From positions 1,457,902 to 1,521,901 of the forward strand of contig OY970209.1 in the NCBI GenBank assembly GCA_963713855.1: 64,000 bases of DNA, written 5' to 3'. This DNA is from an uncultured bacterium (GTDB taxonomy: Bacteria > Babelota > Babeliae > Babelales > Babelaceae). Shown here piece by piece: positions 13,811-39,057 of this stretch (within the stretch, counting starts at the first letter, position 1; each line of letters begins with the position of its first letter). The translations under genes and the position numbers were made by a program. The notes under the pieces are model-generated. The model was not told where the DNA came from and did not search any database. It was given only the letters and a program-made list of their open reading frames with translations.

Positions 13811-13862
13811 GAGATTAAACCAAACTTACTTTTTAAAATAGGAGATCTCTTTAATTTCTTAC

Positions 13863-14927: not shown

Positions 14928-14929
14928 AG

Positions 14930-15433
14930 TTACAACTTTCTATTTCTTACCTTTCTCTTAAGCTTACCACGTTCTTTTTCTATAATTTTCTGATCTTGGG
15001 CATACCAAAGCATTTCTTCGGTATTTTTAAGTTTGCGCAAAAGCAATATGTTATGACCCCAAGCGAATCTAAAGACAGGAAGATTTTCAAAAAGTGGCAC
15101 AGCTTGTGCTACTTTTTCGTAAGCTAAGAAAAAAGCCTTCATTCTAAATATATTACTTCTTGAAAACCCTTCTATTCCAGGAAAAGCATTTTGTAAATCT
15201 TTGACAAGACGCTCAATGATCTGAGACCCCCAATGGCTAATCTCTTGTTTCTCTGTTATTGTTTTGCCTAAAGAGTAATGGAGTTTGATTAACTCTTTGT
15301 TTCCCCAAACAGCTGCTTTAATCTGAGACTCATAGATTTGTCTCTTCAGCGCTAATAGTATCTTAGTATAATCTTTAGCTAGAGCGAGAGTCGGCTTAGA
15401 TGTAGTTTCGCTTTTTTTCTTTATGCTTTTCAT
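14930..15433 (-). pseudogene. DUF1016/YhcG N-terminal domain, truncated (nuclease domain missing)
   Basis: WGSQIIERLVKDLQNAFP..GFSRSNIFRM..F...WGHN...WY motifs; ends abruptly. Confidence 0.7.
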
Positions 15434-15550
15434 TGAGTTCTCTCTACATAGTTCTTTAGCAAAAGCGATTTTGCTGGTAATTTTATCTTTTAATAATAAA
15501 CAAAAAACTTCCTAGAAAGGTGATAACCGCTTTTGAATGGTCTTATCGTA

Positions 15551-15893
15551 ATAGATCTTGCAATTACCGTCAAACCTGGATATACCCACTTTTGATCTAA
15601 TAATCACTTCTTAATGAAGGATAAGCCAACGACCGTACTACTAACATATAGCGCGTATGAGCGTCGAGGAAGTACGTTCAAATTTGGCTCGCATAACTTC
15701 AAAGATGCAGATGCTTCAGCATCAGCGTCGAGCTCCTTCAAGCAGTAAGCTCATTCCTAGCCTAATGGTCCGAATGTCAGCTTCCATTTTAAGCGTCAAA
15801 GCTTACACGAAGCTTTTTCAATACTTTAAGCAAATTACACAACACACGATCAGCATAACTCATATGGCAAGGGCCATGAGGAAAACTATGTTT
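15551..15893. repeat. Conserved non-coding backbone segment, copy A
   Basis: Collinear with 33941-34258; identical 26-mer ATCTAATAATCACTTCTTAATGAAGG. Confidence 0.85.
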
Positions 15894-15900
15894 TTGATTT

Positions 15901-16031
15901 ATTTTTGAGTTCTGACGTAGAAGAGAAGCGTCATATTATTAAACTTGAGAGTGGAAGCTGAGTATGTCCTCTATGACGTTCAACCGCCATTCGATGTGAT
16001 CCTAAAATGTTCGGATCGTCAACTATGGCGG
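15901..16031 (+). pseudogene. Second 3' remnant of the serine recombinase gene
   Basis: GAGTTCTGACGTAGAAGAGAAGCG...CTCTATGACGTTCAACCGCCATTCGATGTGATCCTAAAATGTTCGGATCGTCAACTATGGCGG matches 38848-38986 with an internal deletion. Confidence 0.9.
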
Positions 16032-16060
16032 TACCTAAGCAACGCATTCAGGAATCGAGA
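16000..16060 (+). repeat. att repeat R3 (complete attP-like junction)
   Basis: CGTCAACTA-TGGCGG-TACCTAAGCAACGCATTCAGGAATCGAGA; translates in frame as KCSDRQLWRYLSNAFRNRE. Confidence 0.9.
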
Positions 16061-16177
16061 AGCAAGCTTAAGGCAGTTACCAGCCTCTTTAAAAACTCTT
16101 GATACATTTTGCAGACAAAATGTCCTTTAAAAGCTTAATCTATTGACTTTTTTTCCAATTTATTGGACAATTGCTCT

Positions 16178-16498
16178 ATGAGAGTAGTACTTAAAAAAGT
16201 TTACAAGCTTTATAAAACTCCTGAATATGGTGCTTGGCTTGAACAACAGACTTTTAAGTCCCAAGTACAGATTGCTGATCGCCTCTCTAAAATAGAATTA
16301 GAGGGACATTTCGGTAATCATAAATTTCTTGAAAATAATATTTGGGAGTTAAAGTGGGAAAATGGCAGAAGAATTTACTATGCCTATATTAGCTCTTTAG
16401 ATATTTTAGTTTTACTTGGGGGAAATAAGAATGGGCAGAACAAAGACATTACACAAGCAAAAAGAATCTACAGAAAAAATGTTGAAACAGAAGATTAA
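16178..16498 (+). CDS. RelE/ParE (HigB-type) toxin
   Basis: QIADRLSKIE.GHFGNHK...IWELKW.NGRRIYY...LLGGNKNGQ.KDI. Confidence 0.85.
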   Translation: MRVVLKKVYKLYKTPEYGAWLEQQTFKSQVQIADRLSKIELEGHFGNHKFLENNIWELKWENGRRIYYAYISSLDILVLLGGNKNGQNKDITQAKRIYRKNVETED

Positions 16499-16775
16499 AA
16501 AAAGTGCTCAATTAAAACCTTACAATCCAACTGAAGATCTTTTAGATGAGAATTTTATTGGTAAAGCAATTTTAGAGTGTTTAAAAAATAATGATCCTGA
16601 GGGTGTAATGGAAGTGCTTTCGGTATATTTAAAAACAGTTAATAAGGTTAAATCTGCCCAACAAGCAAATATTGCACGTTCAACACTTTATCATAGCATC
16701 AAAAGCAAAAATCCTACCATCAAGACATTGGCTAAGCTTGTTTCAATTCATTCATTAGAGTTTCGCACAAAGTAA
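16479..16775 (+). CDS. HTH antitoxin (addiction module antidote)
   Basis: Overlaps the toxin; ANIARSTLYHS...NPTIKTL. Confidence 0.8.
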   Translation: MLKQKIKKSAQLKPYNPTEDLLDENFIGKAILECLKNNDPEGVMEVLSVYLKTVNKVKSAQQANIARSTLYHSIKSKNPTIKTLAKLVSIHSLEFRTK

Positions 16776-17124
16776 GCTGTTGGCAAGAAATTCTGTTAAT
16801 CGTCTTATAAAGAATGGAAAGTGCACAAATTTTGAGTATATCGAGATAGCGGGGCAAATGTACTTAAGGTGCTTTGGATCGGGAGCATAGAGGTAATGAA
16901 ATTATAGGCTAAGAGAAAGTTAGCACTGGGTATCTAAGCTCAAATAGAAGTTGAAGCTTATCGAGAGCCTTATCATTCGTCTTGCCGGTCGCATTCAGTG
17001 TAGCATATTGATTACCACGAATATGAAATGCTCCCTTACGATCTCTCTAAACCCTGAATCCTTTATTAGCAAGACTAGCACGAAATCTTGTATGATCAAG
17101 CATCGTTTGCTCCCCCTCAAAAGA

Positions 17125-17172
17125 CCAGCTGTAAAAAGCTGGCGTTACCTAAGCGATGCATTCAGGAATAAA
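17125..17172 (+). repeat. att repeat R4 (hairpin left arm)
   Basis: CCAGCT-gtaaaa-AGCTGGCGT-TACCTAAGCGATGCATTCAGGAATAAA. Confidence 0.9.
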
Positions 17173-17257
17173 GAAGTTAGACTAGATTTACGCTATCATG
17201 CTATTCACGTCTCGTTATATAGATTTGTTAAATAACTAATATTTTGAAGCAAAGCGA

Positions 17258-18499
17258 TTAAGCAAGCCGTTTCATGTTCCACACAGCATACGCTTTTTCA
17301 ATTTGTTGGCGAATTTGTGATGGTGGAATAAAAAGATAAGCATAGTTTTTTACCACTTCACCAGACTGACAAATGCCTTTTTGTTCCCATGCGTTGATAA
17401 GAGTTGCAATGTTAAATTCATGTGCAATGAGAAAGCCTATTATATAAAGGGCTCTCTCAACATGCGACGGATGTCGATCGGATAAACCTATTGTAATAAT
17501 ACTTGGCTTTTCGTCTTCTTCTTCAGAAAGAAGTATGGTTATAAAGTTTAGTATGGCACTCATTTCTCCTAACTTTAAAAGTTGTCTCAATGCGAAAAGG
17601 TCAGCTCGTTGCTCAGTTGTTCGCTCATATAACGACAGAAGCTTGTTCTTTTCGCCTTCGGGCGGGATCCAAAGGAAACCGTAACGCTTAAGCACTCTTT
17701 GAGCTTCTGGCTCGGCTAATGCTTCCACTAATATTTTTCCGATCTTTGTATGACCGAAAGAAGGGAGTGTATGTATGCCAAGCTCTAGATAATCTTTAAT
17801 ATCTTTTTGGTCGGATTTTACTAAAGGCTCGTTTAGGAAGCCCTGCATATCAACATCTCGAGTATCTCCGTGAACAATATGTCCGATCTCATGATAGAGG
17901 GTATACAGTCGAGAATCCAAATCAGGTGTTTTACACATGATTATATAGCTCTTCAAAGGTTTAGTGACTGCTTCACCAGCAAAGGATTTGGTTGTACTAA
18001 GGGCCCTTACTTCTTCTTGAAGACCCGCCAAACGTACGCCTTCGTCAACCAGTTTTTTCTGCATCGCTGTTGGTATTTCAACACCTTTTTCTTTAATAAG
18101 CAAATCAAGCTCAACTTCAGTTATTACTTCCTTTAGCCATGTTCTATCTATCCCATATATTGAAGAAGCTGGTACTAGTCCAAGAAGCTCTCTTAAAAAA
18201 TTGTAAGGATATAATAATATGTTCGGCCTCACACTAAGGTTAGGCTGAACAAGTCCATAATTAGCTCGATAAGCAACATTTTCTAGCCAATCAAAAAACG
18301 TCAAGTCAGATTTGTCCAACTCTTTTAACAGCTCTTGTTTCCAACTCTTGTAATCTTTTCCTTCCACAGTGGGTTTTTCATTATAAACAAAGCTTCCTTT
18401 GTCAAAATCCATTACAAGGGTTATTCCACGAGGTGTTTTGCCATAACTGACTACAGTGAAGGCAAAAGATAAAATAATCGCTTGCATGATTTTTTTCAC
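17258..18499 (-). CDS. Secreted zinc metallopeptidase (M48-like) with one YNxLR repeat
   Basis: Signal peptide; YHEIGH, EQRADLFA, HPSHVERA. Confidence 0.7.
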   Translation of the reverse strand: MKKIMQAIILSFAFTVVSYGKTPRGITLVMDFDKGSFVYNEKPTVEGKDYKSWKQELLKELDKSDLTFFDWLENVAYRANYGLVQPNLSVRPNILLYPYNFLRELLGLVPASSIYGIDRTWLKEVITEVELDLLIKEKGVEIPTAMQKKLVDEGVRLAGLQEEVRALSTTKSFAGEAVTKPLKSYIIMCKTPDLDSRLYTLYHEIGHIVHGDTRDVDMQGFLNEPLVKSDQKDIKDYLELGIHTLPSFGHTKIGKILVEALAEPEAQRVLKRYGFLWIPPEGEKNKLLSLYERTTEQRADLFALRQLLKLGEMSAILNFITILLSEEEDEKPSIITIGLSDRHPSHVERALYIIGFLIAHEFNIATLINAWEQKGICQSGEVVKNYAYLFIPPSQIRQQIEKAYAVWNMKRLA

Positions 18500-19075
18500 A
18501 AAGAGCTCTCAAGAGGCATGATATTCATTAAATTTTTTTACTACCTATATATTTAATATTAGTTTTATTAATGCCAAAAAGTCAATGGTGTATTTTTATA
18601 GCAAAACTTATCTCGTCAAATAGCCAATGAAAAGATCTTGAGGCTATAGGTAAAAAACTTTCTCGAAAGTCAATACCATTTTGCTTGACAGTATTGCTTA
18701 TAAACGGGATTATTGAATTATATTTTACCAAATTTTTCTAGATTTATGACCTAATCAACTCTATATCTGATCAGGGTAGCTAGACTGATGCGATAAACAT
18801 AAAATAGCTGTGATAGGCGTTTCTCTTCTTCTCCATGCTAGATAATGGAGAAGCTCGGTTGGTATATATTCCAAGTTTGAAAGGCTCAGATAGAGGTGAT
18901 TATTCGTTGCTACCTAAGTTGCTTCATCTTTATGGGGCGCCCGAAATCCCTCTGTTGCGATTTAGCAAAGAACTCTTTACTATAGGCGGGATTTTTCGGA
19001 AGAACAAAGATTAGCGATTATTAAGGCATTATTTCGCTGGCCCAGCGTAAATCGAAATAATGCAGGAGCTGCAAT

Positions 19076-19130
19076 CCAACTACTTTTTAAAGAGCTGGCG
19101 GTACCTAATTGACGCCTTCAGGAATAGGCA
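19076..19130 (+). repeat. att repeat R5
   Basis: CCAAC...GAGCTGGCGG-TACCTAATTGACGCCTTCAGGAATAGGCA. Confidence 0.9.
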
Positions 19131-19222
19131 AGTAAGGCTTTTGTATATTTAAGCTGACTTTTAGTTTTACTAAAGAGAAACTTTGCTAAAGCATACTATT
19201 ATGCTCTTTCTACAGTAAATTA

Positions 19223-19252
19223 TTGACATGCTATACTACACAGTGGTATGGT
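19223..19252 (+). promoter_or_regulatory. Promoter with antitoxin-operator-like palindrome
   Basis: TTGACA at 19223; imperfect inverted repeat ATACTAC-aca-GTGGTAT (19233-19249) directly before the TA operon. Confidence 0.5.
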
Positions 19253-19260
19253 ATAAGCAC

Positions 19261-19600
19261 GTGCTTAGAAATATTACCAACAACCTATTTCAGCAAAATG
19301 AAAGACAATCTTCTAAAAAAGAGACAACTCTTTTAAGAAGATTATGATGTATTTCTTGAAGAATTAGCCAAAAACCCAGATTCAGGTGATGTGATTTCTG
19401 GCACAGGTGGTGTTCGAAAGATACGATTAAAATCAGCATCCAAAAGAAACGTGGTGGGTTTAGAGTTTGCTACTTTTACTTTCAGGCAAAGGAACGAATA
19501 TACCTGTTTTATATCTTTGGAAAAAATGAGCAAGAAAAGATAACAGAAGAAGAGAAGAAAATTCTTAGGGACTTAGCAAGCTATTTTGAGAGGGGTTCAG
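19261..19600 (+). pseudogene. HigB-2/RelE-like toxin, disrupted
   Basis: ELAKNPDSGDVISGTGGVRKIR...KRGGFRVCYF...KNEQEKIT, with an in-frame TAA near 19334 and a frameshift near 19445. Confidence 0.8.
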
Positions 19601-19603
19601 AGC

Positions 19604-19921
19604 GTGAGTAAATTATTCAAAGCTTTAAAAGCAGGCTTCGAAGAAGCTATTGCACACGATCAAGGAAAGTTACAGCTTCGCTCAGAATGCATAGAGATTC
19701 CAGAACCACCTGCTCAATATAAAGCTAAAGAAATAAAGAAAATAAGAGAAAAAAATAAATATTCCCAAGCTATTTTTGCAAAGGTTCTTAACGTAAGTGT
19801 TAAAACCGTACAATCATGGGAATCGGGACAACGTGTCCCGAGCCAATCAGCATTACGCCTTCTTGAAATCGTAGAAAAAGGAATTTATAATCCTCAAATT
19901 TATAGAAAATCAATTAGTTAG
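19604..19921 (+). CDS. HigA-2-like HTH antitoxin
   Basis: IKKIREK..SQAIFAKVLNVSVKTVQSWESGQRVPS; GTG start 19604. Confidence 0.85.
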   Translation: MSKLFKALKAGFEEAIAHDQGKLQLRSECIEIPEPPAQYKAKEIKKIREKNKYSQAIFAKVLNVSVKTVQSWESGQRVPSQSALRLLEIVEKGIYNPQIYRKSIS

Positions 19922-20005
19922 ATGACGAATTACTGCCACAGAACAGTTGATTTATCCTAATCTCTTTCTTTACTTATTCTTTAAAGAGCTATTAAAAGCA
20001 TTGTT

Positions 20006-20060
20006 TGCCAGCTTTATTAAGCATTGGCGGCACCTAAGCGACGCATTCAGTAAAAGAGAA
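20006..20060 (+). repeat. att repeat R6
   Basis: TGCCAGCTTTATTAAGCAT-TGGCGG-CACCTAAGCGACGCATTCAGTAAAAGAGAA. Confidence 0.9.
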
Positions 20061-20198
20061 ATAAGAATAATCTCTGTAAGACCCAATAAACTCAAATAAA
20101 GCCTCTTTTTTACGTTAAAGAACAAATGGTTGACTTTGACTTAGCTTATTTTAGAATAAGCACAAAGTTGATTATGTATTAAAAGTGTATCAAAACTT

Positions 20199-21119
20199 AT
20201 GAAAAATCTTCTAGCTTTTATTTATTTTTTAGCAGCAGCCTGCGCTCATGGAGAAGGCTTCTTAGCAGGAACTTTAGTTAAAACTCCAAATGGCTACACT
20301 CCTATAGAAAAACTGCAAGAGAAAGATTTAGTAATTTGCTATGACTTTCAGGGAAACTGTGTCACAAGAAGGATAACAAAGACTTTTAAGCAATCTACCT
20401 CTGATTATATCCGCTTGTGGATTAACGATGAGTTAATTGAAGTTGCTTCTGATCACAAATTTTTTCTACCTCTTGAAAATCGCTGGATCGAAGCGAAATG
20501 CGCTAACTCTAAGCATGTTTTTTTGAGTAGATGTATCGATTTAGTTCTAATTACTGCTGCTCAATATCTGACAAAACAAGCAGAAGTTTACGACATTACG
20601 GTAGAAGAGTTTCATAACTTTTGTGTTTCCAATCAAGATGTTCATGTGCACAATATATCACCTGTAGTAGCAATTGGTATCTCTTGGGCCTTTGAAGGAC
20701 CTATTGTCTGGACAGCTTCTATCGGACTTGCCGGCTTAGGATGGGGAATTGGATACTTGCTTTCAAGTAATCGTCATGCGAGACCGCAAACTCACTTTAA
20801 TGCCGACGAATTTGGACAAAGATTTAACAACAAAAAGCATCACGAAGAAAGCTATCACACAACAGCAGCTAGTGGAGGATCTTCTGATGACTTTGATGAT
20901 GAAGATCCTTATAAAGAAGAACAACACAAAAGCAAGCAAATGAAAAAGCTTTCCGAAGGAGAAATTAAAAAATTGGAAGCTGCTGGAATTGATGTGCACA
21001 CGCTTAAGCCAAATTCAAAATTTGATCTTTTCAAGAATCAGGCCGGTGAAATTTTCGTAAAACCCAAAGCAGGCAATGGTCCTGGCGACTCAACAGGCTT
21101 TAACATCAATAATTTTTAA
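20199..21119 (+). CDS. Signal peptide-Hint-Ntox33-like polymorphic toxin (intact)
   Basis: GFLAGTLV...VYDITVEEFHNF...VHVHN Hint domain; C-terminal KKLSEGEIKKL..GIDVH.LK...DLFK...GEIFVKPK.GNGPGD.TG. Confidence 0.8.
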   Translation: MKNLLAFIYFLAAACAHGEGFLAGTLVKTPNGYTPIEKLQEKDLVICYDFQGNCVTRRITKTFKQSTSDYIRLWINDELIEVASDHKFFLPLENRWIEAKCANSKHVFLSRCIDLVLITAAQYLTKQAEVYDITVEEFHNFCVSNQDVHVHNISPVVAIGISWAFEGPIVWTASIGLAGLGWGIGYLLSSNRHARPQTHFNADEFGQRFNNKKHHEESYHTTAASGGSSDDFDDEDPYKEEQHKSKQMKKLSEGEIKKLEAAGIDVHTLKPNSKFDLFKNQAGEIFVKPKAGNGPGDSTGFNINNF

Positions 21120-21122
21120 GCT

Positions 21123-21521
21123 ATGAAATACGAATACAAAACCCTTGTCCGTCTTAAAATTTTGAGCACGACTCTTAGCCCCGAACAAATCACCTATGAA
21201 TTAGGAGTTGCTTGTGAACAATCTTGGAAGATTGGTGATAATCGAGCATCGAGTATTATTAAAGAAACAACCAATGGGTGGGTTCTTGGTTCAGGGTTTT
21301 CTCAATCAACACCCCTGGAAGAACAACTTGAGCCTTTCCTTAACCGTTTAACTACCTATTCTGCTAAAATTCGTCGATTATCTGTACACAATATTGTTGA
21401 GCTTTCTTGCATTGTCTACGCTGTGGCCCCTCCTGCTCTCTATTTTAATAAGAACGTTATCTCATCCATTGCTAAACTCGGGGCAAATTTTGACATCGAT
21501 TTGTACATTTTAGCAAAATAG
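21123..21521 (+). CDS. DUF4279-like cognate immunity protein
   Basis: 3 bp after the toxin; LSPEQIT.ELG...W..GD...LGANFDIDLY. Confidence 0.7.
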   Translation: MKYEYKTLVRLKILSTTLSPEQITYELGVACEQSWKIGDNRASSIIKETTNGWVLGSGFSQSTPLEEQLEPFLNRLTTYSAKIRRLSVHNIVELSCIVYAVAPPALYFNKNVISSIAKLGANFDIDLYILAK

Positions 21522-21584
21522 TATTCATCTTATCCGGGCTCTACTTCACTCCAAAACTCCGTAGAACAAGTTTAAGAAAAAGAA

Positions 21585-21902
21585 TCATCGTTTTGCCGGC
21601 AAGCTAAATTTTAAATCAAATCCCATTGCTTGCACGATTACTGTTAAAGTACTTAAACGCGGGTTGCCGCTAGGCGATAATGTTTTATATAAACTTTCTC
21701 TACCTAAACCAGTTTTCCGCGATAGCTGCGCATAACCACCTTGAGCTAACGCAACAATTTCAAGAGCCATAAGAAGTAGTTTTTGTGATTCTTCATCTCC
21801 TTTTTTGCATTCGTCTAAAACTGAGTTTAGATAAGCAATAGCTTCTTCTGGATCCTTTAAAGATTCGACTAAGAGATCTTGATATTTTTTACTTCTTGGC
21901 GT
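21585..21902 (-). pseudogene. Orphan addiction-module antitoxin; start codon appears mutated to ACG
   Basis: Frame extends to 21902: (T)PRSKKYQDLLVESLKDPEEAIAYL...AQGGYAQLSRKTGLGRESLYKTLS.SGNPRLSTL; no intact toxin upstream. Confidence 0.7.
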
Positions 21903-22049
21903 ATTTCTTACCCCTCATAATATGGTTGAATAAATAGCAAAATAGCCTTACCGCGTAGTTTACTTGGACGCAAGTTTCTATAAATTGCTAATCCAAAAGC
22001 AGAGATGGAAAGTGTCTTAATAAAAATTATTTAACTTTTGACTGAAAGA

Positions 22050-22110
22050 TGCCAGCTGAAAGCCTTTCGAAAGCTGGCGGTACCTAAGCGACGCATTCAG
22101 GAATAGGGAA
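22050..22110 (+). repeat. att repeat R7 (closest to consensus)
   Basis: TGCCAGCT-gaaagcctttcgaa-AGCTGGCGG-TACCTAAGCGACGCATTCAGGAATAGGGAA. Confidence 0.95.
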
Positions 22111-22258
22111 ATTAAGTTTCATCTACAATATATTCAAAATTAACTTTTACCCTTCTAAAAGTTCTAAGCCGTTTAAGATCTTCTTTGCTTCATCCATTGA
22201 GGATAGATCATATATAGGATATATTAATAGTATAAGTGTTATATAAAGGAATAATCCT

Positions 22259-22465
22259 GTGGAAATTATAGCGTTCGAAGCAACAACAGAAAAGGGAGTC
22301 ATAAAGATCCCTCAACAGTATCTTAAATCAATGACTCCTTACGTACAGGTAATTATAGTAATTGAGGAAGAAAAGAAACATAAAAAGCCTAAGGTTGAAT
22401 TTAAAGCTCTCAGTATCGATACAAAAAAAGTTAAATTTAACCGAGACGAAGCAAATGAACGATAA
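22259..22465 (+). CDS. Putative VapB-type antitoxin
   Basis: Small ORF ending FNRDEANER and overlapping the PIN gene. Confidence 0.7.
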   Translation: MEIIAFEATTEKGVIKIPQQYLKSMTPYVQVIIVIEEEKKHKKPKVEFKALSIDTKKVKFNRDEANER

Positions 22466-22865
22466 TATCGTTTTCTTTGACACGAATATACTCGTTTATC
22501 TTTACACGCAAAGTGAACCTGAAAAAAAGGATGCTATTATAAAGCTTATAGGCTTATATAAATCTCTATTCATTAGCACGCAAGTTATTAATGAGTTTAT
22601 TAATGTGATGCTCAAAAAACATCAAGCATCATATGAGCAGGTAATGGCTGCCTTACAAAAAGAAATACTCGTCCAATTTAACCTTCTTACTGTTACGCAA
22701 GTTACTATCCACAAGGCTCTCACGATAGGAGATAGATATAAATACTCTTATTACGATTCTTTAATAATAGCTGCAGCGCTGGAGTGCGATGCCTCCGAAT
22801 TATATTCAGAAGACATGCATGATGGACATACAATTGAGTCGCTTCAGATAACCAATCCTTTCTGA
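22455..22865 (+). CDS. PIN-domain (VapC-like) toxin
   Basis: FFDTNILVY, ISTQVINE, YSYYDSLIIAAAL, LYSEDM. Confidence 0.9.
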   Translation: MNDNIVFFDTNILVYLYTQSEPEKKDAIIKLIGLYKSLFISTQVINEFINVMLKKHQASYEQVMAALQKEILVQFNLLTVTQVTIHKALTIGDRYKYSYYDSLIIAAALECDASELYSEDMHDGHTIESLQITNPF

Positions 22866-22894
22866 GAAAGGCTTTTTTAAGGCATAAGCTTCCA

Positions 22895-22950
22895 TGCCAG
22901 CTGCTTTAACGAAAGCTGGCGGTACTTAAGCGACGCATTCAGGAGCAAAG
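22895..22950 (+). repeat. att repeat R8
   Basis: TGCCAGCT-gctttaacgaa-AGCTGGCGG-TACTTAAGCGACGCATTCAGGAGCAAAG. Confidence 0.95.
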
Positions 22951-23065
22951 AAATTAGACTTAGGTTAAGTTTGAGCGATATAAAAGGGCTTTATTGCAAG
23001 CTGCGACGTTATGAACATCTATTCTTAGAAAGCAGAAAACTAGTTTGACCATCAATAATAATACA

Positions 23066-23638
23066 CTAAGCCGCAGGTGCAGCTGGAGCAGCATAGGGCA
23101 GCGCTGTCAAAATAGCTATTACCTTTAAATAATAGTAAATTTTCCTAAAAACTATAAGAGGAAGTCCCACAAAAATTACAATAACTGCGGCAATTACATA
23201 CAGAATCGCACTAAAAATCATACTCCTTATAGCTGCATCGAACAGCAAGTAAAGACCTGCTATTATTGGCCTTTCTTCAAAAAACTTAAATAGCTGTTCT
23301 ATGTCATCAACTTTAGCAACAGCATCAAGGATTGCGGTAGGAAGCCCCATAAAAATAAATATAGCTAAAGTATACTTTGCGCCTCCAATAGGAAGCGCCA
23401 TTGCATGAAGAATGATACCCTCTACAGCCGTTGCACATAACAAGAATAAATCTTGCATTTTTGGCGGCATGTCTTTAAAAAAATTAGATGAGCACTCTAA
23501 CCTACCATCATTATTGGCTATATCGGCCCGTTTACAAGCCTCAGGGTCAATTGTCGTAAAATGCATCAAATCTAGAGTAGGATCAGCCTCATAAGAAGAC
23601 TTTTTAATACGACATTTACAACCTAGACTAACACTCAA
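23066..23638 (-). CDS. Hypothetical membrane protein (5' end probably lost)
   Basis: Several hydrophobic helices; abuts a deletion junction near 23648. Confidence 0.45.
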   Translation of the reverse strand: MSVSLGCKCRIKKSSYEADPTLDLMHFTTIDPEACKRADIANNDGRLECSSNFFKDMPPKMQDLFLLCATAVEGIILHAMALPIGGAKYTLAIFIFMGLPTAILDAVAKVDDIEQLFKFFEERPIIAGLYLLFDAAIRSMIFSAILYVIAAVIVIFVGLPLIVFRKIYYYLKVIAILTALPYAAPAAPAA

Positions 23639-23703
23639 TGGCTCTTCGAAAGCCGCGATATTGAAAAAGCAAAGCGATATTGGCTTGATTGCGAAAGGTT
23701 ATT

Positions 23704-24006
23704 ATGAAAAGAAGATTTAGGGATTATCAAGAAAAACCTTACGCAGACTTAAAGGACTCAGAATTAGCTAGTGCCTATCTTAACGTAGCGCTTATGGAGG
23801 AAGATCCACGCGTCTTTTTATTTGCGTTAAAGAATGTTTATGAAGCTCAAGGCGGAGAAATGGCTGATCTTGCTCGAAAGACAAAATTGAGTCGCGAAAA
23901 TCTTTATCGCATACTTTCAGAAAAAGGCAATCCCAAGCTTAGTATCGTATCTTTGCTTAATGCTATAGGATTCTCACTCGCCGTGCAACCTCGTAAAAAT
24001 AAATAA
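23704..24006 (+). CDS. Orphan antitoxin, near-duplicate of 36212-36514
   Basis: Nearly identical DNA, including the last ~55 nt of the toxin gene (23649-23706). Confidence 0.85.
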   Translation: MKRRFRDYQEKPYADLKDSELASAYLNVALMEEDPRVFLFALKNVYEAQGGEMADLARKTKLSRENLYRILSEKGNPKLSIVSLLNAIGFSLAVQPRKNK

Positions 24007-24161
24007 TCTTAGAAAGAAAGTTTTAGTTTTCTCAAAAGGAAGCACTACCATGGCTAGCGTAAACAAAGATGCTGTTGGCTTAAATTTATTTGGGTCAATC
24101 ATGCTGAACTTGTCTTGGCTTAAAATTAGAGCAATTCTATAAGAAAATAATAGCCCATCTA

Positions 24162-24190
24162 TTGACCGACGGTCGGTCGCATGCTATAAG
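24162..24190 (+). promoter_or_regulatory. Sigma70 promoter with TetR operator
   Basis: TTGACC-17nt-TATAAG; perfect palindrome GACCGAC-g-GTCGGTC (24164-24178) overlapping the -35 box. Confidence 0.75.
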
Positions 24191-24228
24191 ATGTCTATTA
24201 TCAATTATCAAAACAGTGGAAATTAAAT

Positions 24229-24894
24229 ATGGCTAGAATTGTAAAAAAGCCCACCGAACGAAGATCAGATATTGTGAATGCTGCTCGCTGCCTGTTACTG
24301 ACAAAGGCATATGACAAAACAACCATGCAGGATGTAATGGACTATTTAGGTATTGCTAAAGGAACTATTTATCACTACTTTGAATCTAAGGAAGCACTTT
24401 TGGAAGCTGTCATAGCAAGCATCGTTGATACGCATATCGAACAAATGCAGGCCCTGATCAATGAGGCAACTGGAAATGCCTTAGTAAAAATTAAGATTCT
24501 GGTAGAAGCGAGCAATATGGCCAAAGATAACAACGTCATTTTTGATCATCTTCATCGGCCAGGCAGTCATGCCATACATATAAGTCTCCTTGCAGCAACT
24601 TTGGTAAAATTGGCTCCCTTATATGAAAAACTGATTCAACAGGGCTGCGAAGAAGGCCTTTTTCAGACAGATACCCCGCTTGAATGCGCTGAGTTTATTC
24701 TTTCTGCTATTCAGTTTCTAACTGATGTGGGGATTTACCACTGGACACAAAAAGATTTAAGTCGTAGAGCACACGCTTTCCCCAAATTAATAGAGCAGCA
24801 TTTGAGAGCGCCGCCAGGTTCATTTTACTTTATGGCGACGCATATTAAACCCGCCGCTAAAAGTGATTTACAGCATACTTTAGTTGAAAGGTAA
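24229..24894 (+). CDS. TetR/AcrR family regulator
   Basis: YDKTTMQDVMDYLGIAKGTIYHYFESKEAL HTH. Confidence 0.9.
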   Translation: MARIVKKPTERRSDIVNAARCLLLTKAYDKTTMQDVMDYLGIAKGTIYHYFESKEALLEAVIASIVDTHIEQMQALINEATGNALVKIKILVEASNMAKDNNVIFDHLHRPGSHAIHISLLAATLVKLAPLYEKLIQQGCEEGLFQTDTPLECAEFILSAIQFLTDVGIYHWTQKDLSRRAHAFPKLIEQHLRAPPGSFYFMATHIKPAAKSDLQHTLVER

Positions 24895-24900
24895 TCTATC

Positions 24901-26117
24901 GTGTCAAATTTTGCTGTTGATATACATGAATTATATAAATCATATGGGATTTTCATGTATTAAAAGGCGTTAACATGCACGTAGAGTCTGGTACAATCTT
25001 TGCGTTACTTGGCCCAAATGGGGCGGGAAAAACAACAATGCTGCGTATTTTAATGACACTTTTAAAGCCTGATTCAGGTTCTATCTTAATAAATGGTATT
25101 GATACAATTAAACATCCAAATCAGGTTAAACAGGTAATAGGAATAGTTGGTCAGTGTGCATCAGTTGATGGCCAATTAACTGGTTTAGAAAATCTGCGAA
25201 TGATCGATAGGTTGCATCATTTAAGCATAGAAGAGGCTAATAATAATGCACATAGACCAACATCAGATGATGTATTTAAGACCCTGACAAAAGCAAATGG
25301 AAGGGTAATTATGACTGTGTATAGAAACTCTATCAAAAAATTAAGCTGGTTCTTAAGTGATGCATTTGTACTTGCTAAGCGAAATTTATTACATATATCA
25401 TGTGATCCTGATCAAATCTCTGGGTTACTCGTTTTACCAATTATGTACACCCTATTATTTCGTTATTTGTTTGGCGGAGCTATAGATAAGATGACATTCG
25501 CTGATGTGGGGACTGGAGATTATATTACTTATATTATGGCTCGGGCGTTTGTTATAAATATTTTATTTGCCTCAATAATCACCTGTGTAGGAGTTGCAAA
25601 TGATTTGACAAAGGGTGTTGTAGATCGCTTTCGCTCACTACCAATTAGCCCGTCATCGGTGATTTTGAGTTATCTTCTTGCCAGTGGTCAGTCAATGATT
25701 ATTATTGCAATAATGACTATTCTGGGACTCATTATGGGATTTCAGCCAACGACGATTCCAATCAAATGGTTAAGTGCTTTGGAAATGTTAGTACTTATGA
25801 CATTAGCAATCTCATGCCTTATGATATTGATTGGTGTATCATCTAAAAATGTTGAATCAGCACAACAATTTGGCGGTCTACTCGTTTTGTCATTATCAAT
25901 GATTAGCTCTGCTCTTGTTCCAACCCAGACAATGCCATCTTTTTTACGTATAATTGCACAAAATCAACCATTTACTCATGCAATTGAAGCAATACGTTCA
26001 TTGCTTTCTGGAACCGATATTGGTAATCATCTTTTTATGTCTTTGATCTGGTTTATAGGTATTATCATCATTACTTTCACCTTGAGCACATATTTATTTT
26101 CTAGCTCGAGTGAATGA
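24901..26117 (+). pseudogene. DrrA-like ABC ATPase (frameshifted, internally deleted) running into an ABC-2 permease (ATG 25311)
   Basis: Walker A GPNGAGKTT present; signature and Walker B absent; jumps to RPTSDDVF, then DrrB-like permease. Confidence 0.75.
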
Positions 26118-28455
26118 GAACCGGATAAAGGGCTATGAAATGTGGATATCAATACTAAAAAAAGATTTTCTCAAAAACAAAGGCATCACTTCAGCATTAG
26201 TCATTTTCATCTCAGTATCAGCATTACTTATTGCTTGTGGAACAAGCATGATCTCTGAATTATATAATTCTTTAAACTACCTATTTGCTAAATCTAATGT
26301 TCCTCATTTTCTTGTAAAGCATTCTGGAAAAATCAATCAAGCAGAGATTGAGCAGTGGTCATTGAATAATAGTCTAGTAAAGAACGAACAGACAACTGAG
26401 ATGCTTAGTATCGATAGATCAAACATTTATTTAGGCTATAGCAACAGGTCTGAGTATGATAGCGTAATGAACATTGATTTTGTTAAGCAGAATTCTTCTA
26501 TGGATATACTGCTTAACAAAAAAGGGCAAGTCATTCGGTTATCAAAAGGGGAAGTTGCAGTTCCACTCTATTATATGCAATTAAAAAACATGAAAATTGG
26601 CGACAGGGTTAGAGTTGCCAATAAAGATTTTGATATGAGTTTTACTGTTGTTGATTTCGTTCGAGATGCTTTGATGAACCCATCATTAGTGCATTCAAAG
26701 CGCTTCGTAGTAAATGATGATGATTTTGAAATCCTTAAAAAGAATATTGGAGAAATTGAATACTTTATCGAATTTCGCCTTGCTGATATAAGTAAGCTAA
26801 ATGAATTTAGAAATGCATATCAGGCATCCAATTTGCCCCAAAATGGACCAATGCTTGATTTTAACTTGATAAAACTTTTAAATGCTTTATCAGATGGTCT
26901 TGTGGCTGCAATAATATTGCTGATAAGTATATTGCTTACTATTATTGCTGTTCTTTGCTTTAGATTTACTATTCTTACGACTCTCCAAGAGGATTATAAA
27001 GAAATTGGCGTAATGAAAGCAATTGGCATTTTGCAACAGGATATCCAAAGAATATATCTGGCCAAATATATCTTAATAGCTGCTATAGGTACAGTGCTTG
27101 GATATTTGGCCTCTTTATTTTTTAATCAGCTGTTTATGGAGAATATCATTATCTATTTAGGGATTGCGCCAAAAACTATTTTAAACCACGTAAGTCCTTT
27201 GATTGCAGTTATCATAATATTCTTGATAATAATATCCTCTTGTGGGGTGGTACTTCGAAAAATAAATAAAATATCACCCATAGAAGCCTTGCGTGGTGGA
27301 ATTATCGGGGAAGCACAGAAACTCAAAAGTAATATGTCTCTGTACAAGAATAGATTATTACCTGTTGATATTTTTCTGGGAGCACAAGATGTATATCAAC
27401 GATTAAGAAGCTATATGGTTTTACTCCTAATTTTTTTCTTTTGCTCATTTATGATCATTGTTCCTATAAATTTTCTTAATACTATTAAATCGCCTAATTT
27501 TATTACATACATGGGGATAGGCCGTTGTGATATCAGAATAGATTTGCAACGGACAGATAACATTCCTGAAAGATTTAATAATCTGATTACATATCTCAAA
27601 AATGACCCGGATGTTGCACAGTTTTCCCCGTTAGTTACCAGTCGGATTAAGACGATAAATGATGGTGTCCAGCAAAATATTAATGTTGAAACAGGGAATT
27701 TTTCGGGATTTCCACTAGAGTATTTGGCAGGCTCAGCTCCAAAGCATATTAATGAAATTGCTCTTTCCGTTCTTAACAGTAAAGAATTTAGAAAGCACGT
27801 TGGAGATAGCTTGCGATTAATAATCGATAAACAAGAAAAAAACATGAAGATTACCGGTATTTATCAGGATATAACTAATGGTGGGCTAACAGCAAAAGCG
27901 GTATTGCCATTTAATCATGAAACAGCGTTATGGTATATAATTAACGTAAATGTAAAACAGGGCGTTAACGTACAAAAAAAAATTGATGAGTATGCAAAAA
28001 TTGCTAATCCAGCCAGGATTAGTGACTTGGCAAAATATCTATCTCAAACCTTAGGGAATACTATCAACCAATTAACGCTTTTCACAATCTCTGCTATCCT
28101 CATCGCCCTGTTTATTTCACTATTAATTACCTATTTATTTCTAAAATTGATACTTGCAAATGAATCCTCTCAAATAGCTATTATGAGAGCTATTGGTTTT
28201 ACATTAAACGATATTCGACTGCAATATGTAACGAGAGTATTGCTAGTGCTTGTCCTTGGAATAATTTTCGGGACAATTATTGCTAACACAGTTGGTCAAA
28301 GCATAATTAATTTATTGTGGTCATTTTTAGGTGCTTCGAAGGTTAAATTCGTTGTATTTCCTATACAGACTTATGTTATTATCCCTCTCGTAGTAATGTT
28401 TGTTGTAGCTATTACTGCATTAATGAGCATGTTGTCCATACATAAAGCTAAATAA
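26110..28455 (+). CDS. FtsX-like ABC transporter permease
   Basis: Two EIGVMKAIG/QIAIMRAIG motifs; multiple TM segments. Confidence 0.85.
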   Translation: MNENRIKGYEMWISILKKDFLKNKGITSALVIFISVSALLIACGTSMISELYNSLNYLFAKSNVPHFLVKHSGKINQAEIEQWSLNNSLVKNEQTTEMLSIDRSNIYLGYSNRSEYDSVMNIDFVKQNSSMDILLNKKGQVIRLSKGEVAVPLYYMQLKNMKIGDRVRVANKDFDMSFTVVDFVRDALMNPSLVHSKRFVVNDDDFEILKKNIGEIEYFIEFRLADISKLNEFRNAYQASNLPQNGPMLDFNLIKLLNALSDGLVAAIILLISILLTIIAVLCFRFTILTTLQEDYKEIGVMKAIGILQQDIQRIYLAKYILIAAIGTVLGYLASLFFNQLFMENIIIYLGIAPKTILNHVSPLIAVIIIFLIIISSCGVVLRKINKISPIEALRGGIIGEAQKLKSNMSLYKNRLLPVDIFLGAQDVYQRLRSYMVLLLIFFFCSFMIIVPINFLNTIKSPNFITYMGIGRCDIRIDLQRTDNIPERFNNLITYLKNDPDVAQFSPLVTSRIKTINDGVQQNINVETGNFSGFPLEYLAGSAPKHINEIALSVLNSKEFRKHVGDSLRLIIDKQEKNMKITGIYQDITNGGLTAKAVLPFNHETALWYIINVNVKQGVNVQKKIDEYAKIANPARISDLAKYLSQTLGNTINQLTLFTISAILIALFISLLITYLFLKLILANESSQIAIMRAIGFTLNDIRLQYVTRVLLVLVLGIIFGTIIANTVGQSIINLLWSFLGASKVKFVVFPIQTYVIIPLVVMFVVAITALMSMLSIHKAK

Positions 28456-28488
28456 TTGAAGTAATTCAGGAGTAATAGGATAATTTTT

Positions 28489-29253
28489 ATGGAAAACATA
28501 TTAGAAGCTAAAGCATTAAATAAATCTTACATTATAAATAACAAACACTATGACGTCCTCAAAGATATAAATTTGTACATTAAAAAAGGTGAATTTATAT
28601 CGGTGATGGGTCGCTCTGGTTCTGGAAAATCTACATTACTTTACACAGTCAGTGGCATGGATAGAATGACATCCGGCAGCGTAATCTTTAATGGGCAAGA
28701 TCTATCACGGCTTGCAGAAAAAGAACTTTCTAAGATACGCCTTAATAAAATGGGATTTATATTTCAGCAGTTTAATCTTTTAAAAAATCTTTCTATTTTT
28801 GATAATATTATCCTTACAGCTTACTTGAGGCGAAAAGTAAATCGCACAGAGATTAATAACCGCGCTCTTGAATTGATGAAAAAAACAGGTATTGAAGAAC
28901 TTGCCGATAATGACATTACCCAGGCTTCAGGTGGTCAGCTACAACGAGTAGGAATTTGTCGGGCTCTTATCAATAATCCTGAGATTATTTTTGCAGACGA
29001 ACCTACGGGGGCGTTGAATTCAACGGCTGCAGATGGAATCATGGAAATTTTAACCGAGATCAACTCGTCTGGGACGACAATTTTATTGGTGACACATGAT
29101 CTTAAAGTCGCATCGAAAACAGAGCGAGTTCTTTTTGTGTTGGACGGCAACATTGTTGCCGAACAAAAGCTTGGCAAATACATAAAAGAAAATATTGATG
29201 TTAAAGTGAGAGAAGAAAAACTATCAAAATGGTTAATAGAACTGGGCTTTTAA
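28489..29253 (+). CDS. ABC transporter ATP-binding protein (LolD/MacB-like)
   Basis: GRSGSGKST, SGGQLQR, ADEPTGALN, VTHD. Confidence 0.9.
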   Translation: MENILEAKALNKSYIINNKHYDVLKDINLYIKKGEFISVMGRSGSGKSTLLYTVSGMDRMTSGSVIFNGQDLSRLAEKELSKIRLNKMGFIFQQFNLLKNLSIFDNIILTAYLRRKVNRTEINNRALELMKKTGIEELADNDITQASGGQLQRVGICRALINNPEIIFADEPTGALNSTAADGIMEILTEINSSGTTILLVTHDLKVASKTERVLFVLDGNIVAEQKLGKYIKENIDVKVREEKLSKWLIELGF

Positions 29254-29388
29254 TGTGGCTTAAAAACATTGAGATTTCTTATTTTTCATAAAAATAAGAA
29301 GGATTTTGTTATTCTTATGTAACTTATGGAGATAGCGTGGTTCATCGCAAATTACAGCCTATTTTGCCCACGGGATACGAGCTCCGTG

Positions 29389-29887
29389 ATGAAGCTCATA
29401 GTAATATACGATTCTTGCGTTCTTTATCCAGCACCATTGAGGGATCTTCTTATGCGCCTTGCACTTACGGACCTTTATCAGGCAAAGTGGACCCACAAGA
29501 TTCATGAAGAATGGATTTATAACCTTTTAAAAAAGCGCCCTGATCTAACGGAAGAACGACAAAAGAAAACATGAACCTGTACGTTAGAGATTGTCTAGTT
29601 AGAAGGCTATGAGAAATTAATCGATAAGCTAACATTACCTGATCCATGCGATCGGCACATTTTAGCCGCAGCCATCGATACGAAAGCGCATTTAATTATC
29701 ACTTTTAATCTGCGAGACTGTTCCCCTTAATATTACGGCTCATTATGGGGTCCAAGCGATATATCCTGATGTGTTTCTTGCATCCTTGCTAAGTAAAGAT
29801 ATAGATACAGTTATCCAAACAATGCGAGAAACAAGGCTCAGTTTAAAGAAGACAGCAAAAAATCCTGAATACTTAGCTACTTCCTAA
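29389..29887 (+). pseudogene. PIN-domain protein, multiply frameshifted
   Basis: YDSCVLYPAPLRDLLMRLA...WT.KIHEEW; later frames give LPDPCDRHILAAA and IITFNLRD. Confidence 0.7.
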
Positions 29888-29978
29888 AACTGTTGCTTAT
29901 GTGCGCAAATACATAAACTTCATTTAATGACGCAATGCCTTAATAGGATAATATTGCATAATCAGGCTCGCTAAATGA

Positions 29979-30030
29979 TGCCAGTTCATTAAGGTGGTGG
30001 CGGTACCTAGTTGACGCATTCAGGAATGAA
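29979..30030 (+). repeat. att repeat R9
   Basis: TGCCAG...TGGCGG-TACCTAGTTGACGCATTCAGGAATGAA. Confidence 0.9.
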
Positions 30031-30107
30031 AAAGTACGCTTACCTATTTTTCATAAACACAACACAATAGGCAAAAATATTTTATTTAGCATAGTTTCTA
30101 AACAAAC

Positions 30108-32801: not shown

Positions 32802-32853
32802 TGCCAGCCTTTTAAGCGCTAGCGGCATCTGGTTGACGCATTCAGGAACAGAG
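32802..32853 (+). repeat. att repeat R11, left end of the tRNA-proximal element
   Basis: TGCCAGC-cttttaagc-GCTAGCGG-CATCTGGTTGACGCATTCAGGAACAGAG. Confidence 0.85.
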
Positions 32854-32932
32854 TGATTGAGCCAGAATTACAAAAGGCACCATTTCTCATACATTAGATT
32901 GCTGATGCTCAACTTAAATTTAAGACTTAATA

Positions 32933-33940: not shown

Positions 33941-34258
33941 ATAAATCTTGCAATCACCATCAAGCATCCATATACTCATCTTTATCTAATAATCACTTCT
34001 TAATGAAGGGTAATCCAATGACTGTACTACTAAAATATAGCGCATATAAGCGTTTAGAAAGTACATTCACACTTGGCTTATATAACCCGCAAGATAGACT
34101 TTGCTTGTTCGAACTACAAGCTTATTCGCATCAACCCGAATGTTAGCTTTCTCTTTAACCGCCAAAGCTTATATAAAACTTTTTTAATACTTAAATAAAG
34201 TCAATAGATGATCAGCACATATCTCTTGTAGTTAAGAGTCGTGAGGAAGACTATGTTT
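33941..34258. repeat. Conserved non-coding backbone segment, copy B
   Basis: Collinear with 15551-15893. Confidence 0.85.
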
Positions 34259-34519
34259 AAAAGAGATCCTCCGGCTAGGCCAAAGGCAATTTTGACCATT
34301 GATCAGCGTAATAAATTTGCACATTTCTTTATCTTGCTTATGACTATTGATAAGCAATTACAAAAGAAAAGCAAATCAAAAGAAATAAAGAAATCAAAAA
34401 TCAAACTAAATGACGAGACAAGCTTCACCACTAGGCGAACCTTGTTTTTCTTACTAGCTTATTTATCTTTAAGTAGTCAAAGAGCTCCCCAACCCTGCAC
34501 TTGTGAGAGAATGCTTTAA
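34253..34519 (+). CDS. Small hypothetical element protein
   Basis: GAGGA RBS and ATG at 34253, both conserved in copy A (ATG 15888). Confidence 0.45.
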   Translation: MFKRDPPARPKAILTIDQRNKFAHFFILLMTIDKQLQKKSKSKEIKKSKIKLNDETSFTTRRTLFFLLAYLSLSSQRAPQPCTCERML

Positions 34520-34741: not shown

Positions 34742-35859
34742 ATGATAGATACTGTCGTTTTAATACTGAGCCAAGATATGTATCATATCAGTGAGCCTGA
34801 TAAGTTTGTACCATCTGCTCGATGGATTGGCAATCCATCGCCAGCTCTTCATGGTATTTGCTCTAAGCAAAACCCCACTAAAAAAGAGCTGTTAAGTCGC
34901 ATATATAAGCCACGCCTTCTCTTTCATATCACTATAACAAGGAAAGCAAACAAGAAATAACACTTAAAATTGAGCTTTCATTACCCAAACTAGTTTTTGG
35001 CAATAACTTCAATGAGCTCATGCGTAAAGACTTTACCTCAATACTACAAAAGCTAGTTTATGTGCTCAAAGAAATGGGAGTCATAGTAACCGAAGAAGTG
35101 CTCACGAAGGCGCCTGTTTCCGCTATTCATTATTCTAAGAATATTCCCTTAACTGACGGTTCTTTACCTTACCATTTCATTAACAAAGCCAAAGAAGCCA
35201 ATCTTAAGTTGTCACTAGATACTAATCAAACAGATTATAGCGATGGTCATAGCTATAAATGGCATTGTAATTCCTATGAAGTTGTCTTTTACGACAAGAT
35301 CAAAGACCTTGAAATGGCTAAAAAGAGTAGTAAGCGTGCATTAGAAAAGGACAGTGATGTACAGCTCAATCTTTTCGAAGCTTTGCGTAAAAGAAAGAAG
35401 TTTGAAGTTTTACGCATAGAAGTTCGGCTTAATAAGCGCCAGAAAATGAAGCAGCTTTTTAAAGATCTTGAGATTATATCAAACCTCACTTTGAAGAGTT
35501 TGTTCAAGCCGGCTATCTCCAAAAAAGTTTTATTACATTACCTTGATGAGTTAGAAAGGAAAAGGCCGGCTTTGCTTGATTATAGAACATCAAGTGATCA
35601 AGCACTCTTAGCTGCTTTAGTTATTAATAACTCCAAGCTGAATCCGAAAGCTGTCCTTCAAATGTTCGGCCTAAAAAAAGCTTTAGAAACAGTTACAGCT
35701 CGTGAGCTGAGAATTATCTTTGCTAAACATCATTCAAGAAGCTGGAATCGCCTTATAGCTGACGTTCAGAAGCTAAAGCTCCCTATAGCACAACGTTCTT
35801 TGACAGTTCTAAGGGATTTGATCAAAACTAAGCCCTTAAGATTACCAATCTTGCGTTAA
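34742..35859 (+). pseudogene. Phage/plasmid replication initiator (gene II/X-like), one frameshift near 34918
   Basis: MIDTV...; joined frame gives ELSLPKLVFGNNF; later IHYSKNI, FYDK and LRIEVRL motifs. Confidence 0.6.
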
Positions 35860-37534: not shown

Positions 37535-38992
37535 ATGAAAGCCATACTTATCGCTCGCGTGAGCACAGAAGAACAAAAAGAAGCAGGTAATTCTTTACCA
37601 GCTCAAATTTCACGCCTTAAAAGCTATTGTGAAAGTAGAGATTTTGAGGTTATACGTACTTGTAGCTTTGATGAAAGTGCTTACTCTAATGACCGTTCTG
37701 AGTTTGACCGTATTATTGATTTTATCTTAAAGCAAAAAGAAAGGGTTGCTGTCTGCGCTGATAAAGTTGATAGGCTTTCGCGTAATGTCTTTGATAAACG
37801 CATCTCTGTTTTATATGAAAAAGCACTGAGCGATGAAATAGAACTGCATTTTGTATCGGATGGTCAGGTTATTAATAGCCGTATATCAGCCGTTGAGAAG
37901 TTTCAGTTTAGTATTAGCTTAGGCCTTGCCAAGTATTATTCTGATGCCATAAGCGATAACGTTAAAGCGTGCCCACGAACAAAAGCTACGTAAAGGTGAA
38001 TGGCTTGCTAAAGCGCCTTATGGTTATAGAAATGTAAAGAATGCGAATGGCAATACTGACATTATCATTGACGATTATGCTTCTCAAATCGTTAAAAAGA
38101 CGTTTGAATTGTATGCGACTGGCTCTTATTCAATGGAATTGCTCTGTAAAAAGCTTAAGAATGATTATGGCCTTGAGTGGCCAAAAGGCTATTTAGGTAA
38201 ACTCCTTGATAATCCTTTTTACTACGGCGTTATGGTCATCAAAGGGAAGGAATATCCTCATCGATACCCAACTGTTATTACCCAAGCTCTTTTTGAGGAA
38301 GTACAGAGCATCAAAGAGGGATTTAAGAAACAGCCTTTTAAGTACGCAGGTAAGCCATACGTCTATCGAGGTCTTTTACGTTGTGGCCACTGCGGATTAG
38401 CCATAACACCGGAAAAGCATAAAGGATTCGTATATTACCATTGCACGCAGTATAAAGGTAAGCACGGAGCAAAATGGCTTCGGGAAGAGGAAATCACGCG
38501 CCAATTAGTAAAGTTTTTAGGAATCTTCAAATACCAGAGTACATCCTAACAGAAATTACTCATACGCTCGATACTCTTCATAAGGATAAAATAGATTTTC
38601 ATAACAAAGAGTTCGATAAGCTTACTACTGAACAGAAAACACTTACTAAGATGATTGATAATCTTTATATAGATAAACTCAAGGGGAGAATTACTGAGAG
38701 CGACTATGACAGATTTTACCAGTCTCTTAAAGATCAAAGCATTGATATTACTATTAGACTTGAGCAACTTCAAGAGGCTGAAGATAACTACTACCTTACA
38801 GCAAAATGCCTTCTGGGTTTGGCTAATCGAGCATTATGAATTTTTACGAGTTCTGAAGTTGAAGAAAAACGGCAGGTTATGAAACTTGTACTATCGAACG
38901 TCAGGATAGAAGCTGGAAAAGTGCTCTACGACGTTCAATCACCATTTGATTTCATCCTAAAATGTTCGGATCGTCAACTATGGCGGGGCTAA
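37535..38992 (+). pseudogene. Large serine recombinase (integrase), three apparent frameshifts (~37970, ~38510, ~38835)
   Basis: ARVSTEEQ catalytic Ser, DKVDRLSR, APYGY, NPFYYG, zinc ribbon CGHCG...YYHC, coiled coil; ends ...DRQLWRG* inside the tRNA. Confidence 0.9.
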
Positions 38993-39057
38993 CGAGACTC
39001 GAACTCGCGACCTTCCGCGTGACAGGCGGACGCTCTAACCAACTGAGCTATAGCCCC
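38981..39057 (-). tRNA. tRNA-Asp(GTC), integration target
   Basis: GGGGCTATAGCTCAG...GCCTGTCACGC...GTTCGAGTC...CCCCGCCA cloverleaf. Confidence 0.95.

Follow-up and report, generated by a model that had tools for sequence, protein, structure and literature searches.

The window, the whole 64,000-nt stretch of DNA analyzed here, forms the end of one 1.52-Mb contig and contains a large serine recombinase gene that runs head-on into a tRNA-Asp gene. The closest named loci mostly belong to Babeliales/Dependentiae. The junction comprises the following features:

37535..38992, + strand: gene for a large serine recombinase, present in the short (integrated) form with WRG and a stop at its end (Pfam, tblastn)
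38956..38984, + strand: left arm of attP, contributed by the element; it forms the P half of the junction on the tRNA side and encodes the conserved integrase end
38985..38986, + strand: inferred crossover dinucleotide GG, tRNA nt 71–72, acceptor stem
38981..39057, − strand: tRNA-Asp(GTC), the target gene, head-on with the integrase gene

Pfam assigns the three pieces of the gene to Resolvase, Recombinase and Zn_ribbon_recom, the domain order of a large serine recombinase, in which a zinc ribbon follows the catalytic and recombinase domains. The families PF00239, PF07508, and PF13408 are present in intact homologs, and within the genome PF07508 matches the integrase gene only. All coordinates given in a preliminary description of the locus were exact on re-check. 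There, the recombinase frame was said to enter the tRNA and to stop at TAA 38990–38992; its end lies exactly there, but the frame is not continuous, as two frame changes and a TGA at 38837–38839 were mapped from three tblastn segments aligned to an intact homolog. The Rep-like gene of the same element is also split. An assembly error was rejected as the cause, since 21 of the 22 other gene bins that were tested are intact, unlike those of integrase and Rep. Both genes are pseudogenes in this genome and the resident copy is dead.

The integrase stop sits within the acceptor stem of tRNA-Asp. The triplet TGG at 38981–38983 is at once the integrase Trp codon, corresponding to the invariant W483 of alignment A3, and the antisense of the tRNA CCA. 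The left-arm sequence CGTCAACTA is found at 38972–38980 and again at 16017–16025. A scan for promoters and terminators near the attachment site remained at chance level.

The resident element and the array of right arms

A decayed integrative element of 6.2 kb, belonging to a family common in Babeliota/Dependentiae and Patescibacteria, has its tRNA-side end at this locus. From its far end at 32820, the resident element carries a small ORF, Rep, a toxin-antitoxin pair and the large serine recombinase. Upstream of it, further copies of the right arm of attP are strung together in an array:

34241..34519, + strand: small conserved ORF that precedes Rep (one helix, basic tail); may encode a directionality factor or a regulator
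34742..35859, + strand: Rep-like gene, split by a frame change; a homolog resembles Phage_CRI rolling-circle initiators (lead only)
32820..32897, + strand: far end of the resident element (6.2 kb), where a hairpin-type host arm meets the right arm of attP; nearest arm upstream of Rep and integrase
13760..30043, + strand: additional copies of the right arm, each with a hairpin-type left arm, at 13778, 17140, 19096, 20025, 22075, 22917, and 29998
22917..23036, + strand: array arm with an in-frame recognizable tail (score 10.4; 99.9th background percentile 8.1)
15884..16130, + strand: relic tandem junction of an integrase 3′ remnant and a right arm (attP-like); tail decayed after ~12 codons
11987..12301, + strand: second relic tandem junction, integrase end and right arm, core with a 1-nt deletion

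The Rep-like gene lies between tail and integrase in 21 of 23 related islands; the Atlas clusters of its homolog contain 25–31% PF05144, and the likeness to Phage_CRI serves as a lead only. Nine clean right-arm copies (≤7 mismatches of a 29-mer) and the 1-nt-deleted copy at 12257 all lie within 12256–32820. No right-arm match below 9 mismatches was found elsewhere in the 1.52-Mb genome, so the arms are not a product of chance. An integrase gene end precedes the right arm only at 12257 and 16026. All others are preceded by a hairpin-type arm, which resembles the sequence beside empty tRNA-Asp genes of relatives, and the copies from 13778 to 29998 partition the cargo into blocks of 0.8–7 kb.

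With ten right arms, eight of them with hairpin-type left arms, the array is cassette-like. Its cargo includes toxin-antitoxin pairs, PT-HINT proteins (one with Ntox33), an LD-carboxypeptidase, and a TetR regulator with an ABC transporter. An HI1420-like antitoxin gene is present in two copies ~94% alike, one in the array (23649–23999) and one in the resident element (36157–36510). An eleventh, very degenerate arm at 10160 (10 of 29 mismatches) is possibly the oldest end of the array. Comparable arrays were found in genomes G027 (locus L132, six arms) and G001 and in the Saccharibacteria loci L036 and L038.

The preliminary description had paired the left arm with its exact reverse complement in the array arm R9 (core 29998–30007). 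The coordinates of CGTCAACTA and of TAGTTGACG (30008–30016) are correct, but R9 is not the partner site of the resident element, which is the nearest arm at 32820; there, TGGTTGACG matches the left arm at 8 of 9 positions. Likewise, the reported joining of the gene end to a repeat arm at 16000–16060 is borne out insofar as the frame at 16026 reads WRYLSNAFRNRE, but only ~150 bp of the gene end are left, with an internal deletion. The junction displays the join but is decayed and holds no working gene. A non-coding stretch directly upstream of the small ORF (33981–34195) is duplicated at 15592–15829, which shows that the 16026 remnant is left over from a collapsed element built on the same backbone.

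Tails in the window are decayed: the frame at 32820 extends for 25 codons, and only the 22917 arm keeps a recognizable in-frame second half. Across codons 3–12 of the nine arms, changes are distributed 12/8/16 over codon positions 1/2/3, with 9 synonymous versus 17 non-synonymous codons. The codon-like variation previously ascribed to these right arms is thus weak inside the window, while the tails of relatives are conserved as protein (see below).

Crossover site and displaced tail in related loci

Distinct homologous integrase ends abut the 3′ end of an opposite-strand tRNA in 80 of 114 cases, 76 at offset 0 and four at offset 2. Seven tRNA types are represented (Asp 21, Asn 17, Arg 16, Glu 12, Gln 10, His 3, Leu 1). 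In all of these, the integrase frame crosses the attachment site and host DNA supplies the stop codon upon integration; independent loci thereby back the earlier claim that attP lies inside the integrase gene. Most homologs do end at WRG and a stop, the observation that would have spoken against an extension, but they do so as integrated forms entering a tRNA. Among the best 120 of 586 homologs, 83 stop ≤4 residues from the Trp, 19 read through a tRNA, eight carry a tail of the type W-x6-(F/L)-R, two end otherwise, and eight are incomplete. The integrated ending is unconstrained: 47 of the 80 tRNA-abutting ends stop ≤4 residues from the Trp, and the range is 3 to 93 residues. As this length follows the tRNA, a degron in the integrated ending is unlikely. 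The wider integrase family consists of 1034 clusters at 50% identity (E up to 1e-30), and a crude pattern applied to the best 150 of these clusters returned 77 tRNA-like and 10 tail-like endings. Three distant homologs (~30% identity; L202, L203, and L204, on two faecal scaffolds labelled "bacteriophage" and one Neochlamydia record) were considered as circles and rejected, being integrated forms that run into the 3′ ends of tRNA-Leu, -Glu, and -Tyr.

To locate the crossover, the two ends of each of 23 islands were compared, with positions numbered from the T of TGG. Identity at positions 1–7 is 18, 15, 18, 19, 21, 22, and 6 of 23, with the window paired with the arm at 29998. The ends of L016 and L136 share essentially positions 5–6 alone and those of L022 positions 4–6 alone; a mismatch at position 5 or 6 occurs in three of the 23 islands (L018, L135, and L010). 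The dyad symmetry of the reconstructed sites, for which the arm at 32820 was used instead, also peaks with its center at positions 5–6 (6.4 of 16 pairs, next best 5.0). Comparison thus points to a 2-bp crossover amid an imperfect dyad, as is characteristic of large serine recombinases, and the proposal of a crossover at GG is upheld, at 38985–38986. A center on TG (positions 1–2) was rejected, because the far end of several islands has no TGG. A crossover at tRNA nt 71–72 would mean that the element supplies the last four bases of tRNA-Asp, i.e., the discriminator and CCA, with the invariant Trp codon doubling as CCA donor.

At the far end of related islands, the right arm runs on as an orphan frame of about 31–38 codons with the consensus WxxLVDxFRNxxxxFxxxLxxIQTxF. 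The hydrophobic periodicity of this tail suggests a helix, strand, helix arrangement with an amphipathic helix. Different tails in excised and integrated forms, as postulated in the preliminary description, are backed by independent loci, but the tail has about three times the length described there. A profile built from 24 tails scored held-out tails at 11–28 bits, whereas no reversed decoy exceeded 5.3. Codons 11–30 of 29 full-length tails, which lie beyond the DNA-binding arm, show a pN/pS of 0.61 in frame; the two remaining forward frames give 0.87 and 1.5, and the sequence past the stop 0.94. As this set was picked by protein profile, finding all 29 of its frames open is circular, and pS is close to saturation. 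Leu19 is written with five codons (TTA, CTT, CTA, TTG, and CTG), and the stops cluster at codons 32–39 in 25 of the 29 tails. The decayed arrays in the window and in G027 served to build a DNA-only motif, and the loci of both genomes were left out of its test. Among its 38 sites of at least 15 bits, a set that includes chance matches (7 reversed decoys also reach 15 bits), 23 are open through codon 30 in frame, as opposed to 10 and 5 in the other frames, and Leu19 is present at 21.

Considering integrase-tRNA ends with at least 8 kb of upstream sequence, a tail lies upstream on the same strand in 23 of 40 and on the other strand in two of 40, while for 17 of 40 no tail was found in reach. The displaced 3′ part of the gene is thus present at the opposite element end for 23 of 40 ends, and in decayed form in the window. 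Three phage integrases align out before the conserved Trp, and the tail is therefore an addition to the usual fold. Natural fused long forms are represented by P0074, P0159, and P0124. The Atlas model of P0074 has a pTM of 0.43 and a mean pLDDT of 0.77; in the Atlas, its residues 430–516 match only recombinase clusters and unnamed proteins and no directionality factor, and a weak search with its C-terminal 62 residues returned only itself among 20 candidates.

A second tail type marks the far end in three islands whose integrases are divergent (33–48% identity to P0005); integrase identity to P0005 is 60–73% in 21 of 23 islands of the first type. Only one of the eight long forms among the best 120 homologs carries the first tail type, most being chimeras with the second. 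Several first-type integrases are fused to a second-type tail; in L006 (11021–13786) and L149 (6046–11861), where the fused integrases are intact, 2.8 and 5.8 kb of integrase-free cargo come next, and then a hairpin-armed tRNA-Asp. These fusions indicate that tandem arrival swaps tails between subfamilies. No circular form was seen and no locus has terminal repeats; the viral contigs yielded no relative, and sequencing runs contained at most 0.08 of the words.

Recombination model, known systems and alternatives

Comparison across loci shows that the integrase gene spans its own attachment site, that its conserved Trp codon reads as the reverse complement of CCA in the target tRNA, that a conserved tail is displaced to the far end, and where the crossover lies. 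The best overall explanation, which we regard as highly probable, is a site within the gene, a tail parked at the far end and rejoined on excision, and gene fusions arising in tandem. Recombination at tRNA nt 71–72 (GG here) would leave a gene of ~485 codons whose last residues are spelled by antisense tRNA, with the true C-terminus, a conserved tail of 30–35 residues, left at the far end of the element. Excision would rejoin gene and tail, restoring a protein of ~515 residues, and successive arrivals at one tRNA would fuse old integrase ends to new tails, as at the 16026 and 12257 junctions.

The principle of an attP within the integrase gene is already published for Mx8, DsiB, streptococcal rumA ICEs and archaeal suicidal integrases. 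The target of Mx8 is tRNA-Asp. According to the available parts of the reports on IntP of this Myxococcus phage (and on Mx9), integration replaces the C-terminal 112 residues by 13, giving a less active enzyme (PMC4701971, PMC6070905). Mx8 IntP is a tyrosine recombinase of a phage, whereas the present enzyme is a serine recombinase of a small Rep-bearing element with a ~33-residue tail and many tRNA targets. DsiB of the Dehalococcoides ssrA islands is itself a large serine recombinase; the 3′ end of its gene invariably overlaps attL, its islands occur in tandem, and the authors suggest full function only on the circle (PMC3146451, available part). In contrast to the present enzyme, DsiB targets a tmRNA and belongs to a six-gene module with a second recombinase, its C-termini are described as divergent, and the available part of the report mentions no conserved orphan tail. 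The serine integrases of streptococcal rumA ICEs likewise have attP in their own gene but belong to conjugative elements of Firmicutes that disrupt a protein gene as target. In the archaeal suicidal integrases (SSV1, pTN3, and pT26-2) the att site also lies in the integrase gene, and the available part of the source views the splitting as a built-in directionality control (PMC8371274). There, a tyrosine integrase loses its catalytic domain, whereas the present enzyme is of the serine family with all domains upstream of the site, and its short form keeps every Pfam domain. Phage large serine integrases (SPbeta, LI/A118, phiC31, and TP901-1) and Ccr/XisF share the domain order and a short core in an imperfect dyad; unlike the present family, they use a separate directionality factor. 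Matches were obtained to PHROG 95 (E 3e-65) and to the TP901-1 catalytic domain (E 3e-12), while P0074 scores below the NCBIfam cut-offs for XisF (104 of 375), CcrB (81 of 900), and CcrA (70 of 700), which places it outside the Ccr/XisF equivalogs by this measure. The literature searched holds no account of this integrase family or its tail; the TIGER "regulated gene integrity" paper (Mageeney 2020) and supplements of LSR-mining studies may list such sites.

What the tail does can be narrowed by weighing several readings. That the peptide-like pattern is a by-product of att-arm conservation at the DNA level, with no tail at all, is largely refuted by sequence comparison and highly improbable. 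Within the window the pattern fades after ~13 codons with changes that are not clearly synonymous, and some bases of codons 6 and 8 also belong to the tRNA arm, which constrains these codons as DNA; among relatives, however, conservation reaches codon 31 in one frame, well beyond the arm, with synonymous codon switching and the clustered stops described above. If the tail is a protein segment, it may tune activity, the enzyme of the circular element being fully integration-competent and the integrated short form altered in efficiency or direction. We lean slightly towards this reading, for which the tyrosine integrase of Mx8 is a reported precedent of tail-dependent activity. A stronger version, which we consider doubtful, would make the tail a directionality factor built into the gene that, on the circle, packs at the junction of DBD2 and coiled coil and locks the enzyme into integration, its loss leaving an excision-competent enzyme. 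In published structures, directionality factors bind at this very junction (PMC11722253, PMC11795197); the tail follows the C-terminus of DBD2 in sequence, which makes a cis-acting factor conceivable.

Integration might instead cripple the enzyme: the tail would be needed for folding or catalysis, the short form would be nearly inactive, and excision would require a full-length integrase in trans. Such a fate would parallel that of the archaeal suicidal integrases, and it would fit a protein-conserved tail, the decayed integrase of this genome, and the stacked, stranded arms in the window, G027, G001 and two Saccharibacteria loci. The short form nevertheless keeps its catalytic, recombinase and zinc-ribbon domains, is as long as the three phage integrases (460–480 aa), and is intact in 83 of the best 120 of 586 homologs; we regard crippling as improbable. 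A little less improbable, though still not favored, is a tail that is a minor structural appendage, with direction set by the small ORF before Rep and the overlap serving only to supply the CCA end of the tRNA compactly. The small ORF, a candidate for an ordinary alternative directionality factor, has a profile that matches in 14 of 23 islands and no decoys (and no match to NCBIfam or PHROG); chimeric integrases carry foreign tails, and the directionality factors described in the available parts of the sources are small separate proteins at the DBD2/coiled-coil junction (PMC11795197, PMC11722253). On the other hand, ~20 codons past the att arm are under selection although only the circle or a tandem junction would express them, which implies that the tail matters, and the tail type tracks the integrase subfamily, with only three islands of the second type compared.

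How large serine integrases control direction is an active question, and the known solutions rely on a separate protein. The present family offers matched natural pairs, the same enzyme with and without a conserved tail and with mapped att sites, in which a cis-acting switch is directly testable. Most database entries for these enzymes represent the integrated, tail-less form, which is relevant to integrase mining for genome engineering. If the tail were a built-in directionality factor, the recombination that a serine integrase performs would itself act as the switch, and this would apply to a family that numbers about a thousand clusters at 50% identity, targets many tRNAs at their conserved CCA end, and exchanges tails between subfamilies at tandem junctions. 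tRNA targeting by serine recombinases has been called unknown (PMC4383910) or rare, with Mycobacterium AICEs at tRNA-Leu and phiRSM1 as examples (PMC3218068); the loci compared here show that tRNA 3′ ends are targeted far more widely than these sources state.

Two further observations concern the target sites. In L043, L164, L172, L174, and L179, integrase ends enter a tRNA-like sequence that is not called by ARAGORN and contains a shared longer insert; it is possibly an intron-bearing or decayed tRNA-Asn. In L163, a 51-nt hairpin lies between the integrase Trp codon and a tRNA-Arg (7118–7169), and the same sequence is found to the left of the far-end tail (392–432), a duplication that could regenerate the target beside the tRNA.
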